DNA of 64,000 nucleotides from a virus (IMGVR_UViG_3300020576_006930:75133-139132); one strand, 5' to 3'; numbered from the stretch's first letter, positions 42 through 42,975 are shown. The notes: generated by a model not told the origin, from the sequence alone. Numbers and translations: made by a program.

Positions 42-917
42 ATGAAAGATAAACTACTACCACATACCCATTTTCCTATGATCGTGGGTCTCACCGCCTT
101 GGCCATTGCGATTTGCGCCGCTGGGTTTTCCGTCTATGGAATCGCCACCTTATTTGCCGGAGCGGCCGTTTCCGTTGCGGTTATGGCTGGGACTTTGGAA
201 TTTGGAAAACTTGTGGTAACGACTTATTTATATCGTTACTGGAACAAGATTGGGTTTGGCTTTAAAACCTATCTGACCCTTTCCGTTTTAATCCTAATGG
301 TCATAACTTCGCTAGGTATTTTTGGGTTTTTAAGTTCCGCATATCAGGCCAGTTCTTTAGCGTATAACCTAAATCAGAGCAAGATCCAACAGATTGAAAC
401 GCAGAAGTCTTTTCACAACGACACCATCACGGCAGCCAATTCAAGGATTGCTATTTTAAACCAAATCCGCAATGGGCAGGAAGCTAGGCTAAGTGAGGCC
501 CAGACCAACGCTTTCATCAGTCGCAATCCGATTCAATTAGCTCAGTTACAAAATCAAACCGGAGAAATGATCAAGCAAGCGAATGAGGAAATTAAGGAAA
601 AAAACCAATTAATAGAAACGGAACGGAAAGCGTTACAAAACATTGATCAACAAACGACGGAGTTAAAAATTGCGGCCAGTGGGAAAAAGGATATTCAAAC
701 TCTAAAATACGTCGCCGATCAACTTGGATGGGAATTGGATCGGGTCGCTTTTTGGTTTATGTTAGCGATCATTTTTGTTTTTGACCCCCTTGCCATAGCT
801 TTGATCCTGGCCTATAACGTCGCGATATTCCGACGGGAATCATTGGAGGTTTTAAAACCGGAAACTCCAAAACAGGAAAAAGAGCTATTATTGGATTCTG
901 ACTCAAAAAAAGCTTAA
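42..917 (+). CDS. Membrane protein (three N-terminal TM helices, long coiled coil, C-terminal TM); possible -1 frameshift extension to 1111
   Basis: Hydrophobic helices (IVGLTALAIAICAAGFSV, TLSVLILMVITSLGIFGFL, WFMLAIIFVFDPLAIALIL) flank a Q/E/K-rich coiled coil. ATG at 42 follows a TATATATG element and is preferred over the TTG at 21. Confidence 0.75.
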   Translation: MKDKLLPHTHFPMIVGLTALAIAICAAGFSVYGIATLFAGAAVSVAVMAGTLEFGKLVVTTYLYRYWNKIGFGFKTYLTLSVLILMVITSLGIFGFLSSAYQASSLAYNLNQSKIQQIETQKSFHNDTITAANSRIAILNQIRNGQEARLSEAQTNAFISRNPIQLAQLQNQTGEMIKQANEEIKEKNQLIETERKALQNIDQQTTELKIAASGKKDIQTLKYVADQLGWELDRVAFWFMLAIIFVFDPLAIALILAYNVAIFRRESLEVLKPETPKQEKELLLDSDSKKA

Positions 918-955
918 CGCCGGAAACTCCGCCGGCGGTTATAAAAATTCCGGAG
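905..955 (+). promoter_or_regulatory. Candidate -1 programmed ribosomal frameshift signal (A_AAA_AAA plus H-type pseudoknot)
   Basis: A7 at 905-911 is read TCA-AAA-AAA-GCT-TAA. After a 6-nt spacer, stem 1 is CGCCGG(918-923)/CCGGCG(932-937) and stem 2 is CTCCG(927-931)/CGGAG(951-955). The -1 frame is open to TAA at 1109-1111. Confidence 0.6.
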
Positions 956-1122
956 ATGGTTGAAATGGAAGTAACAGGATCTTGTCCATTGATAGAAGAT
1001 TCCTATGAAATGGACCCTACTTTAGAACCACCTGATGCCGGCGCGATGCAAAAATCTTCACAACCATTTCACGATCCGTTCTTTGACGCATATTTTAAAA
1101 GAAATAATTAATGAATAATGTC

Positions 1123-1151
1123 TTGACAACATTATCTAATAGTACTAAAAT
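1123..1151 (+). promoter_or_regulatory. Sigma70-type promoter upstream of the operon containing the gp55-like sigma gene
   Basis: TTGACA(1123-1128), 17 nt, TAAAAT(1146-1151) in AT-rich intergenic DNA. Confidence 0.65.
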
Positions 1152-1700: not shown

Positions 1701-2534
1701 ATGAAGCGACTCAAAAAATCACCGAAGAACCATGTCCGAAAAAAATCCTCTCCCGCTCCTACGGTTAAATCCCCCAAAAAGATAGACCCGCCTGTTGGTC
1801 CTAATATCGCACGTAATTGGCGACCACGAAAACCCCGCAGTAAAAAGTTCTCCATTGATAGAATGTATTTCACCCAAGACACTGAGAATGCCATAGTTAA
1901 ATATAATACCACCGAATGTCAGGAAACACGGAATAACATCTACAATACTCTTATCAAGTACGCTTTTGAAAAATTAGTAGAAAATGTTTTTAACACCTTC
2001 AAGTTCTCATATTTAGAAACCGGACCACTTGACGCCCAGAAAGAAACGGTTGCCCACCTTGTCGCGAACATTAACAAGTTCGATCCAACCATCGGATTCA
2101 AAGCGTATTCGTATTTTTCTATCGTTGCGAAGAATTATCTCATCGCACTAAATAACAATAACTACAAGCGTTTCAATCAACACGTTGATATTGGGGAAGA
2201 GAGAGACGACCATACTATCCAGCTTCAGTCGGAGGATAAACATTATAAAGATTCAGAAACCGCTGAGTTCATGGATTTGATGGTTGATTTCTGGGAGAAC
2301 AATGTCAATAAGATTTTCAACAAATCCCGTGACTTAAACATTGCCAATGCGATTATTGAGCTATTCCGAAACTCAGATCGGATCGACGCATATAATAAAA
2401 AAGCCTTGTATTTGTATATTCGGGAGATTTCTAGCTGTAAAACTCAACAGATAACTAAAATTATCAATAAAATGAAGCAATACCAAAGGCAAATAACTCA
2501 GAGTTATGTTGAGGACGGAGTAGTGGAAGTATAA
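1701..2534 (+). CDS. gp55: Late-transcription sigma factor, T4 gp55-like
   Basis: YFT..ENAIVKYN and KFDP..GFKAYSYFSIVAKNYL resemble the sigma region-2 core of gp55-family proteins; basic N-terminal extension. Confidence 0.7.
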   Translation: MKRLKKSPKNHVRKKSSPAPTVKSPKKIDPPVGPNIARNWRPRKPRSKKFSIDRMYFTQDTENAIVKYNTTECQETRNNIYNTLIKYAFEKLVENVFNTFKFSYLETGPLDAQKETVAHLVANINKFDPTIGFKAYSYFSIVAKNYLIALNNNNYKRFNQHVDIGEERDDHTIQLQSEDKHYKDSETAEFMDLMVDFWENNVNKIFNKSRDLNIANAIIELFRNSDRIDAYNKKALYLYIREISSCKTQQITKIINKMKQYQRQITQSYVEDGVVEV

Positions 2535-39774: not shown

Positions 39775-42700
39775 ATGCCCATTACCAAATTAAAAACCGA
39801 TATTGCTAAAGTTTCGCACATCGTCCATGTGGCCGACATCCACATTCGACTTAATAAAAGAAATGAAGAATATCGTGGAGTGTTTGATAAATTATATGAA
39901 GAAATAGCTAAAACACCGGCTAGCACCGTTATTGCGGTCTTGGGCGATGTCTTTCACAATAAATCGGAAATGGCGCCGGAGGGAATTCAGTTAGCCAAGG
40001 ATTTTTTGTATACTCTCGCGGAAATGCGTCCGGTGATTTTAATTGCGGGAAACCACGATGCGACATTGACTAACCGCAATCGGCTTGATTGTTTAAGTCC
40101 TCTGGTCGACGCGCTTAATCACAAAAACATCCACTACCTCCGTGATTCGGGATTGTACAGTTTTGGGAATGTGTTGTTTAATAATATGGGCGTGTTCGAT
40201 CCGGTCGAAAAATATCTTCGGTTCAAGGATATTCCAACCGTTCACAAAAATTCCCACGAACATTTTATTGCGTTGTTCCACGGTCCGGTAAACAATGCGC
40301 TGACTGATCTTGGGTATACCATCTCCAGTAAATCCTACCCCACCGCTTTATTTGATGGACATGAAATCGCCTTGCTAGGCGATATTCATATGAAGCAGGA
40401 TTTACAATTATATGACCCGGATGAAGGTCAACCTTTTATTCATTACGCGGGATCGTTGATTCAACAAAATCACGGCGAAGATTTAAAAGGACATGGGTTC
40501 AGTTTGTGGGATCTGGGTAAAGTTTCATATACCCACGTTGAAATTCCAAACGAATACGGACATTTCACCATTGACGTAGAAAAAGGAAAACTAAATACCG
40601 ATTTAGCGAATATACCAAAAAAAGCGCGGTTGAGAATTCGTTGCTTTGAGTCGGTCGCCACCGAAGTAAAAGCGGTTCTGTCCAGTGTGCGTAAGGTCGC
40701 GGATATAACAGATGTCATTTACGTGCGGGTAACATCCCCTACCGATCAAAAAACCATCAAAGCTGGAGCCATTTTATCGGGTGATTTATCCGACACAGAA
40801 TATCAAAATTCATTGATCACCGACCATCTTAAAAAACAAATGAAAGTGGTGGACAAACCGACCATTGAAAGTGTGCTCAAGGTGAACAAGGTTATAAATA
40901 ACCAAGTTAAAAAGGATGGGTTTAGCCGAAACATTCGTTGGAAACCAAAGCTATTTGAATTTGACAATATGTTTTCTTACGGAGAGGGGAATGTCATAGA
41001 CTTTTCCAAGCTCAGCGAAGTTGTCGGTTTATTTGCTGCGAATGCGTCAGGAAAATCAAGCGTCTTATCTGCTCTAATTTTTTGTATCTTTGACAAGTGT
41101 GATAAAGCATACAAAGCTAGTTTCATTTTGAACAATCAAAAAATGAGCTTCCGGTGTAAGTTCAATTTTGAAATCGACGGGATCAATTATTTCATTGAAC
41201 GTGGAGGGAAAGCGGACAAGAAGGGAAATGTCCCCGTAACGGTAAAGTTTTGGAAAGAAGAAAACGGAGAAGAAATTGAACTTCACGGGGAAGGCCGGCG
41301 GGATACCAACGAAGTTATCCGTGATTACCTTGGAAGTTATGACGATTTTCTTCTAACGACTCTATCGGTTCAAAACGCAAAAAATTCAAATTCGTTTATT
41401 GATATGGGTCACTCCGAACGTAAGGATTTGTTGAGCCAATTTATCGGCCTAACAATTTTTGATCGGTTATATAGTGTCTCCAATGAAAAACTTAAAGAAC
41501 TGACGGTTTTGTTAAAGGAATACAAAAATGACGACTTTACTAAAAAGTTAGTAGAATTAAATAATGCGTTGGGGAATTCTCAAAGTTTATATAACACTTC
41601 CCATATCGAATTGAATCGGTTAGCTTCCGAACGTGAAGAGGTAAATTTAAAAATTGTTGATGTTTCTAAAGGATTTGTCAATACGGACAATAAAGTCGTA
41701 GATCTGGCCGCAGCGGAAAAATCAAAGTCAGATTTAATTCAGAGAATAGAAAAGGAACAACGTTCTCTCCTCGGTTATACCCAAGCCTCAGTCACGTTAC
41801 AAAAATCAATCGATGGCTTTCAGAAAGTCATCACCGAACTGGCTCATAAAAATGTTGAGACGATTTACATCCAATTCTCCGAAGCTGAAATTCTTTGGCG
41901 GGATTTGAAAAATTCCGTGGATAAAAAGAAGATTGAAGTGCGTTCCAAATTAGATAAATTGGACAAGTTAAATAAACACGAATATGATCCAAATTGTAAA
42001 TATTGTGTTAATAACGAATTCGTCAAAGACGCATTGCGCACAAAAGAGGAATTGCCTCAGGAAAAACTGGCCGCTGCCAAGTTAATTGAACGGCTTCAAC
42101 AGATCAGTAAGAAAAAGGATGATTTGGCCTGGGTGGTGGCTGATCATAAATTACTCCTCACAACTCGCGAAAATTTAGTTCAGAGTAAGGATGATTTTAA
42201 TGATGAATTGGCAAAAATAACCAAATCTGAAACCTTGATCGTGCGCTTGGCGGCAGAACGGGATGCGATCACCAGAGACATTGAGTTTTATCACAATCAC
42301 CAAAAAGACATCGAATCCAATAAACAAATTCAAAAAGAAGTGGAAGTCCTAAATCAGAAATTGAGAAATGTCGCTCACACCCACAAGACCGTGAACCAAA
42401 CAATCTTGGATTTGAATGGCAAACTTACGGTGTTAAAAACTCAGATCGAAGAGATAAAAAAGAAAGTGGAAAAGGCTAAATCCATCGAAGATGAATATGA
42501 ATCTTATAGCCTGTATGTCCAATGTGTCGGTCGGGACGGAATTCCCTATGAAGTTATCTCCGCAACAGTTCCGGAAATTGAACGGGAAGTGAATAATATT
42601 CTCAGCCAAATCGTTGAATTTTCCGTGGAATTGGAATCGGATGGTAAAAACATCACTCCGTTCATTGTCTATGAGAAAAATCGCTGGGCCTTGGAACTAT

Positions 42701-42975
42701 CCAGTGGCCTTGAGAGATTCATTTCGTCCTTGGCCATTCGGGTAGCGTTGATTAACATTTCCAATCTACCACGGATGAATGCGATTGTAATCGACGAAGG
42801 GTTTGGGTGCGCAGATGCGGACAACCTCGCAGCGATGAACACCCTATTTGATTACCTGAAAACTCAATTTGACTTCGTTTTAATCATCTCCCACCTTGAT
42901 GCGCTTAAGGATATGGTGGATAAACACATCGAAATCAAGAAAGAAAACGGGTTTTCCAAAGTTAACTTCGTATAA
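39775..42975 (+). CDS. Fused Mre11/SbcD nuclease and Rad50/SbcC ATPase (gp47-gp46-like)
   Basis: ADIH, GDVFH, GNHD, LGDIH phosphoesterase motifs; Walker A NASGKSS; CKYC zinc hook; LSSGLE signature; IDEGFG; IISH. Confidence 0.92.
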   Translation: MPITKLKTDIAKVSHIVHVADIHIRLNKRNEEYRGVFDKLYEEIAKTPASTVIAVLGDVFHNKSEMAPEGIQLAKDFLYTLAEMRPVILIAGNHDATLTNRNRLDCLSPLVDALNHKNIHYLRDSGLYSFGNVLFNNMGVFDPVEKYLRFKDIPTVHKNSHEHFIALFHGPVNNALTDLGYTISSKSYPTALFDGHEIALLGDIHMKQDLQLYDPDEGQPFIHYAGSLIQQNHGEDLKGHGFSLWDLGKVSYTHVEIPNEYGHFTIDVEKGKLNTDLANIPKKARLRIRCFESVATEVKAVLSSVRKVADITDVIYVRVTSPTDQKTIKAGAILSGDLSDTEYQNSLITDHLKKQMKVVDKPTIESVLKVNKVINNQVKKDGFSRNIRWKPKLFEFDNMFSYGEGNVIDFSKLSEVVGLFAANASGKSSVLSALIFCIFDKCDKAYKASFILNNQKMSFRCKFNFEIDGINYFIERGGKADKKGNVPVTVKFWKEENGEEIELHGEGRRDTNEVIRDYLGSYDDFLLTTLSVQNAKNSNSFIDMGHSERKDLLSQFIGLTIFDRLYSVSNEKLKELTVLLKEYKNDDFTKKLVELNNALGNSQSLYNTSHIELNRLASEREEVNLKIVDVSKGFVNTDNKVVDLAAAEKSKSDLIQRIEKEQRSLLGYTQASVTLQKSIDGFQKVITELAHKNVETIYIQFSEAEILWRDLKNSVDKKKIEVRSKLDKLDKLNKHEYDPNCKYCVNNEFVKDALRTKEELPQEKLAAAKLIERLQQISKKKDDLAWVVADHKLLLTTRENLVQSKDDFNDELAKITKSETLIVRLAAERDAITRDIEFYHNHQKDIESNKQIQKEVEVLNQKLRNVAHTHKTVNQTILDLNGKLTVLKTQIEEIKKKVEKAKSIEDEYESYSLYVQCVGRDGIPYEVISATVPEIEREVNNILSQIVEFSVELESDGKNITPFIVYEKNRWALELSSGLERFISSLAIRVALINISNLPRMNAIVIDEGFGCADADNLAAMNTLFDYLKTQFDFVLIISHLDALKDMVDKHIEIKKENGFSKVNFV

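Follow-up and report, generated by a model that had tools for sequence, protein, structure and literature searches.

Frameshifts that extend the C-terminus of a phage protein are known from the T7/T3 capsid gene 10A/10B, from head and tail genes of Lactobacillus phage A2, and from Listeria phages A118 and A500 (PMC5009743). In all of these the shift takes place in the last 0-frame codons and yields a minority product with a C-terminal extension; one gene gives two virion proteins in a fixed ratio, and the extensions are often Ig-like domains. In insertion sequences, a cluster of elements with proven, stem-loop-stimulated A_AAA_AAA sites has been listed (PMC4066793), and the orfA-orfB sites of the IS3 family (IS3, IS150, IS911) combine an A-rich heptamer, A_AAA_AAG or A_AAA_AAA, with a 5-8 nt spacer and a stem-loop or pseudoknot, the fusion joining two functional domains across a long ORF overlap. 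In E. coli dnaX (tau/gamma), a lysine-codon heptamer is combined with a 3′ structure and an upstream Shine-Dalgarno-like stimulator; the shifted ribosome terminates at once, and the shifted product is the short one. Tail assembly chaperone genes (G/GT) of dsDNA phages have a conserved -1 programmed ribosomal frameshift (PRF) giving a long minor product, usually without a strong pseudoknot. Transcriptional slippage, finally, has been described at A/T runs, as at the A9 of Thermus dnaX, in IS elements and in Citrobacter tssM (PMC5009743, PMC4256274).

A first-pass annotation of the window (the whole 64-kb stretch of viral DNA analysed here, from a large uncultured freshwater phage) had proposed a -1 frameshift with an H-type pseudoknot at the end of a membrane-protein gene. 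Comparison with 11 relatives supports this reading, and we consider it very probable that the 3′ end of this phage gene directs programmed -1 ribosomal frameshifting. All features described below lie on the + strand. The 0-frame ORF (42..917) encodes a putative short isoform of 291 aa. It starts at ATG 42, residues M1-K2-D3 being invariant across homologue alignments, and ends ...LLLDSDSKKA, its last codons being TCA (903-905) AAA AAA (906-911) GCT TAA (915-917). The slippery heptamer A_AAA_AAA (905..911) stands in the 0-frame register TC[A AAA AAA], and is followed by a 6-nt spacer, GCTTAA (912..917), which ends in the 0-frame stop (TAA 915-917). Stem 1 (S1, 918..937) pairs CGCCGG (918-923) with CCGGCG (932-937) through six G-C/C-G pairs, and encloses an 8-nt loop made of loop 1 (AAA, 924-926) and the 5′ arm of stem 2 (S2, 927-931). 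An A-rich loop 3 of 13 nt (GTTATAAAAATTC, 938..950) crosses stem 1, after which the 3′ arm of S2, CGGAG (951..955), pairs with CTCCG (927-931) to give a predicted H-type pseudoknot (S1 6 bp, L1 3 nt, S2 5 bp, L2 0 nt, L3 13 nt) with sterically feasible loops. The gene end, the A7 run and both stems were found exactly where the annotation had placed them. The standard arrangement that it had invoked, an X_XXY_YYZ heptamer followed by a structure, is also present, with A_AAA_AAA in register and S1 beginning 6 nt after it.

The -1 frame is free of stops between the stop at 899 and TAA 1109-1111, and adds 66 codons (911..1111, translated from the window sequence). A promoter-like site of the next transcription unit, TTGACA-17-TAAAAT (1123..1151, 11/12 consensus matches), directly follows the -1 stop and bounds the extension. 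The predicted fused product has 356 aa compared to 291 aa for the 0-frame product, 66 residues being added. The predicted junction is ...DSDSKK|SLTPETPP... (peptide ...DSDSKK-SLTPETPPAVIK), the extension residues are SLTPETPP...DPFFDAYFKRNN, and the C-terminus reads HDPFFDAYFKRNN. It includes the conserved motif DPFFDAYFKR (1073..1102), an end shared by single-ORF homologues. In the window record and in all relatives, gene callers truncate the protein or call a spurious small ORF downstream; for annotation, the true long product would be 356 aa.

Compared to the systems listed above, the layout is that of a textbook -1 PRF cassette (PMC4066793, PMC5009743), and by this analogy its kind is known and the example is new. 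A literature search found no paper describing this cassette. On the likenesses drawn here, the nearest functional analogues are the C-terminal-extension frameshifts of virion genes, and the nearest mechanistic ones the IS3-family sites. As in T7/T3, A2 and A118/A500, the shift would occur in the last 0-frame codons and give a minority product with a C-terminal extension, though the fixed ratio of two products is here only inferred. The gene differs from those cases in encoding a predicted four-TM membrane protein instead of a virion protein, in an extension predicted to be a disordered tail with a short aromatic-basic motif, and in its stimulator, a compact H-type pseudoknot with comparative support. 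With the IS3 family it shares the A-rich heptamer, the spacing and the hairpin or pseudoknot, but its -1 frame opens only about 4 codons ahead of the site, its 0-frame stop lies inside the spacer, and there is no sequence or Rfam similarity between those sites and the window cassette. The common N-terminal body, lysine-codon heptamer and 3′ structure recall dnaX; the outcome is opposite, since here the shifted product would be the long one, and an upstream Shine-Dalgarno-like stimulator of the dnaX type was looked for before the heptamer (TTGGATTCTGACTC) and none was evident. A conserved -1 PRF with a long minor product is likewise a feature of G/GT. We nevertheless rejected an identity with the tail assembly chaperone, as the gene does not lie between tail tube and tape measure genes, encodes a four-TM coiled-coil protein without Pfam or PHROG family, and has a predicted pseudoknot.

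Taken by itself, the window sequence makes a case for frameshifting that is suggestive rather than compelling. The S1 hairpin is the minimum free energy (MFE) structure of 912-960 (-13 kcal/mol), and the fold z-score of the window sequence alone, computed with ViennaRNA, which does not score pseudoknots, was an unremarkable -0.45. Nor is A7 by itself rare, with 29 A7/T7 runs in 64 kb. Such runs were depleted relative to dinucleotide-preserving shuffles (29 observed vs 67 +/- 12), a shortage that fits selection against slippery homopolymers in this phage. Of 12 homologous frameshift sites, 9 showed joint S1 and S2 pairing of the strength seen here; such pairing was found at 0 of 1,911 other positions within the window's first 6 kb, and its frequency in a background of 13,958 natural positions from the same loci was about 0.1%. 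Rfam covariance models searched against 700-1300 gave no relevant match, even at E <= 10. Both copies of an 11-mer reported by the first-pass annotation, CCGGAAACTCC, were recovered as an exact repeat (858..868 and 920..930), and there are exactly two in 64 kb, vs 0.01 expected. A role of this repeat as an upstream competitor or attenuator was rejected: it is not repeated in relatives, and is therefore probably incidental. The significance of the cassette comes from comparison with relatives and not from the single-sequence fold.

The comparison covered a clade made of the window and 11 distinct relatives (58-78% protein identity), all from independent metagenome assemblies of different samples; relatives' DNA was drawn from ENA, JGI and Logan assemblies, with separate samples and assemblers. 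Three other routes to relatives yielded nothing: a search for related loci with the single window protein as query gave no matches, blastn of the region against cultured phages gave none either, and a pattern scan of IMG/VR DNA for the cassette (CAAAAAAAGNNTRRNGCCG) returned 88 chance matches, none adjoining this gene. In databases, these close homologues are called as proteins of about 290 aa ending ...LLLDxxPKK(A/V), like the window. All 11 were found to be frameshifted alike, with a heptamer, a spacer holding the 0-frame stop, a GC-rich S1 and a -1 ORF. The heptamer is A_AAA_AAA in the same register in 8 relatives. In the 3 others (L194, L199, L200), it is C_CCA_AAA, a canonical heptamer at the same place and the same distance from S1, with only four A's and no A7. 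Phage A2 uses this same heptamer, C_CCA_AAA, with a downstream structure. The spacer measures 6-8 nt and contains the 0-frame stop (TAA, TAG or TGA) in 12/12 members. The -1 ORF is open over 53-121 codons in all 12, and 11 of the extensions end in a clear DPFFxAYFKR-type motif, that of L199 having a weaker ...FAKRYFK... variant which is not terminal. Conservation of the extension peptide (xPExxPPAxIKKEE) starts right at the shift site.

S1 is GC-rich and 4-7 bp long across the clade, and is the MFE hairpin in 12/12; 93% of its alignment cells are paired (12 sequences). S2, of 5-8 bp, was found 11-19 nt after S1 in 11 of the 12 members (the window and 10 of 11 relatives), the intervening loop 3 of relatives being 11-19 nt long and A-rich. 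The arms of S2 vary in sequence among members yet remain complementary: CTCCG/CGGAG in the window, GATTCC/GGAATC in L004, GAGGAGA/TCTCCTC in L194, TTCCTC/GAGGAA in L196, AGAAACC/GGTTTCT in L203, CGATTCT/AGAATCG in L195, and AGGTTCT/AGAACCT in both L002 and L198. In the MAFFT alignment (A3), paired cells made up 85.7% vs 78.8% in shuffles (0/500), and the covariation score was 0.209 vs 0.116 (0/500), while slid registers gave only 20-51% pairing. This alignment sets L194 and L203 3 columns out of the S2 register and was left unedited, which makes the pairing counts conservative. Four of 7 S2 pairs vary on both sides, vs 1 of 6 for S1, the rest of which are mostly invariant G-C pairs. As S1 is nearly invariant, its support in these alignments is one of conservation and not of covariation, and the conservation could in part be that of the protein, for in the -1 frame each arm is read as Pro codons and a G (CCG-G). 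L202 (1873-1940) has the heptamer, the spacer and an S1 of 6 bp closing a loop of 8 nt, with no detectable S2; judged from its sequence, this is a natural hairpin-only variant of the signal. Of what the first-pass annotation had proposed to look for in homologues, conservation of the A-run (or heptamer) was seen, as was covariation in the S2 arms; S1 is mostly invariant, and L202 lacks S2.

On a tree of the core protein, L201 groups with the 12 frameshifted members in a single clade, supported at 100%. L201, nested within it, has an uninterrupted ORF. This topology fits a single origin of the cassette, a long retention and perhaps one loss, and the retention points to selection over a long time. 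Uninterrupted homologues without a conserved structure, which had been named as a possible refutation, were found outside the clade, where they have neither heptamer nor structure; inside it, the structure covaries. Uninterrupted homologues keeping the LLxD motif showed no comparable structure, even when the best of 30 positions was taken.

Database searches gave 3,947 homologues of the protein, every one viral or metagenomic in origin. At 50-60% identity, most are single ORFs of 320-350 aa ending in D(D/P)FF(K/N)xYFK(R/Q)-type motifs, and more than 100 more distant ones also carry the terminal motif within one uninterrupted ORF. Since core, tail and motif are united in one ORF in over 100 homologues, the -1 ORF would therefore be the gene's own C-terminus. 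Scans of viral and metagenome contigs with alignments gave at least about 148 further distinct loci, with identities of at most 56% among the matches listed, most of these loci being uninterrupted single ORFs.

The wider family includes genes which bear on how the -1 frame is reached. Among the matches listed, at least 18 loci have an A9-A11 run at the gene end, with a change of frame (L040, L043, L044, L046, L052, L075, L080, L085, L103, L106, L111, L122, L133, L136, L144, L147, L161 and L162). A -1 change is needed in 17 of these 18, and a +1 change in L052. No consistent structure was found downstream of the runs, and in one A-run clade the continuation ends in the family motif (...RRHDYFSRLFKN). 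At least 7 origins (about 7-8) are needed on the tree, and L046, out of frame with A11, has as its sister L047, in frame with A12. In such subclades, slippage of the polymerase or sliding of the ribosome on poly-A is the natural mechanism, and we regard these cases as likely to reflect transcriptional slippage, poly-A sliding or hypervariable runs, not the mechanism of the window. One may ask whether programmed transcriptional slippage could account for the window as well, the polymerase adding one A on A7 so that the mRNA encodes the fusion and the structure is irrelevant. We consider this very unlikely, even though the other subclades reach the same -1 frame at A9-A11 runs and polymerase slippage may make a minor contribution at A7. 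The sister clades with A9-A11 resemble known transcriptional-slippage sites, whereas the window clade, with A7 or C_CCA_AAA and a pseudoknot, does not. A7 is shorter than the A9-or-longer runs of the other clades, and homopolymers on which slippage takes place usually count 8-9 residues or more, vs A7 in the window and A4 in the C_CCA_AAA members. For the three latter, with four A's at the same position and the pseudoknot, slippage is excluded. Polymerase slippage moreover leaves unexplained how the run is set in the 0 frame, why its distance from the structure is 6-8 nt, and why a structure covaries downstream, this structure being still untranscribed when the polymerase would slip. For the clade as a whole, these three features are typical of ribosomal frameshifting.

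A further arrangement is found in a distant subclade where the gene is truly split: the tail is a separate small ORF with its own Met, overlapping the stop of the core gene, mostly as ATGA (gene ends of L065-L076, L114, L115, L121 and L129). This tail ORF has about 50-60 aa, starts M..Y..NR.YRD and ends ...FKK. The split, ATGA-coupled layout needs at least 3 origins, and from its sequence the subclade is a translationally coupled version of the gene. The same could be imagined for the window, with 956..1111 or more translated alone, from ATG 956 or by reinitiation at TAA 915, and no fusion made; an ATG is indeed present at 956, and gene callers report separate small downstream ORFs in several relatives. 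Independent translation from this ATG had also been raised by the first-pass annotation, and what was found speaks against it. ATG 956 is not conserved, and in L195, L196 and L203 the extension lacks Met entirely. Conservation of the extension peptide begins upstream of any candidate start, GGAG (952-955) lies only 0-1 nt from ATG 956, too close for a Shine-Dalgarno sequence, and homologues have the tail fused in frame. We therefore give two separate genes hardly more than a marginal probability.

The least credible alternative is an artefact or decay, either a homopolymer assembly error (true A8) or a fixed frameshift leaving a dead tail remnant: homopolymer runs are error-prone and short motif-less forms exist among cultured-phage homologues (XacN1 and RAS14 for example), but independent assemblies of relatives keep the out-of-frame layout, seen in 12 diverged sequences that come from separate samples and assemblers, homopolymer error is excluded because three of these carry C_CCA_AAA in place of A7, and a dead remnant would gather stops at 58-78% identity, while the extension is open in 12/12 with the motif intact in 11.

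Ribosomal frameshifting in the window would then proceed as follows. While AAA-AAA (906-911) is being decoded, the pseudoknot 6 nt further on would stand at the ribosome's mRNA entry channel, and a fraction of the ribosomes would slip two tRNA-Lys back by one base on A_AAA_AAA. Ribosomes that do not slip would translate GCT, terminate at TAA and make the short isoform of 291 aa; those that have slipped would read 66 further codons and give the 356-aa isoform, with a disordered Pro/Glu-rich tail ending in the aromatic-basic motif DPFFDAYFKR. Most likely, both short and long isoforms are made. The slippage itself, its efficiency, and a fixed short:long ratio as the selected function are what we infer from the conserved elements. 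The spacing of 6 nt falls within the usual 5-8 nt between heptamer and structure (PMC4066793). In E. coli, A_AAA_AAA shifts less readily than A_AAA_AAG (PMC5009743), and efficiency may therefore be low, or dependent on the host, or on tRNA-Lys(UUU). About 40 phage tRNA genes were detected with ARAGORN outside the window (G000:C1 51764-52562 and 64060-64135), among them two tRNA-Lys(UUU), one tRNA-Lys(CUU) and a tRNA with a CUA anticodon (amber-suppressor type). The phage's own tRNA-Lys(UUU) genes might determine how efficient the frameshift is. The Lys tRNAs of the phage decode the slippery codons.

Taken as a whole, the family might have repeatedly evolved different devices setting how many copies of the protein carry the tail, a reading that we offer tentatively and to which we give slightly less than an even chance. 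The devices would be a fused ORF (all copies tailed), the pseudoknot -1 frameshift (one origin), slippage at A9-A11, and the split ATGA-coupled gene. If the A-run cases are truly programmed, the family would allow several recoding mechanisms with one purpose to be compared side by side in nature. The pseudoknot, if real, would constitute a new RNA family.

To our knowledge, -1 PRF with a covarying, compact H-type pseudoknot is uncommon in bacterial or phage genes outside IS elements and virion proteins. The present locus would add a non-virion membrane-protein case with 12 natural variants, which form a ready-made mutational series comprising a heptamer swap (A_AAA_AAA to C_CCA_AAA) and the S2-less L202. 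The tail, its DPFFxAYFKR end and its dosage would have to matter, which gives a handle on an uncharacterised protein of jumbo phages; among its cultured carriers are XacN1, RAS14/CM1, Xoo-sp13, Mosig and immuto.

The function of the protein was searched for in Pfam, PHROGs, PDB sequences, the ESM Atlas and with Foldseek. None was found, and only generic coiled-coil matches were returned; Atlas neighbours were virus-only 'hypothetical' clusters. A weak match was to M. tuberculosis SteB-RipA (9hmx, E 0.1), a coiled-coil protein anchored in the membrane that regulates a cell-wall hydrolase. An AlphaFold2 model was made of the uninterrupted relative P0017, in place of the fused 356-aa protein. It predicts TM1 (11-38) and TM2 (42-65), followed by TM3, which extends as a long helix (72-155); with the helix that returns from it (163-215), this makes a long antiparallel hairpin. 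After TM4 (232-268) come a short linker and a disordered tail, at whose end a short helix (344-349) covers the motif. Judging from its homologues, the family is virus-only and found in large myoviruses. Uninterrupted homologues are present in the cultured jumbo or large phages XacN1, RAS14, CM1 and Xoo-sp13, and also in Mosig, immuto, Mel-JY01 and RsoM2USA, all annotated as hypothetical.

An HSP20 gene and a sigma-like gene flank the membrane-protein gene, and the baseplate, portal and capsid genes lie downstream of it. The HSP20/alpha-crystallin small heat-shock gene (L001:196-669) lies about 0.5 kb before the start of the window. In L194, L197 and L199-L202, an HSP20 gene is also found directly upstream of the membrane-protein gene, and synteny is conserved. 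On the other side of the frameshifted gene, before the baseplate block, stands a 277-aa ORF (window 1701-2534) with a weak match to Sigma70 region 2 (E 0.036), which may encode a phage late sigma-like factor. Further into the window (39775-42975), a single ORF of 1,066 aa matches an SbcD-like PHROG in its N-terminal part and an SbcC-like PHROG over the remainder, and appears from these matches to encode a fused SbcCD nuclease.
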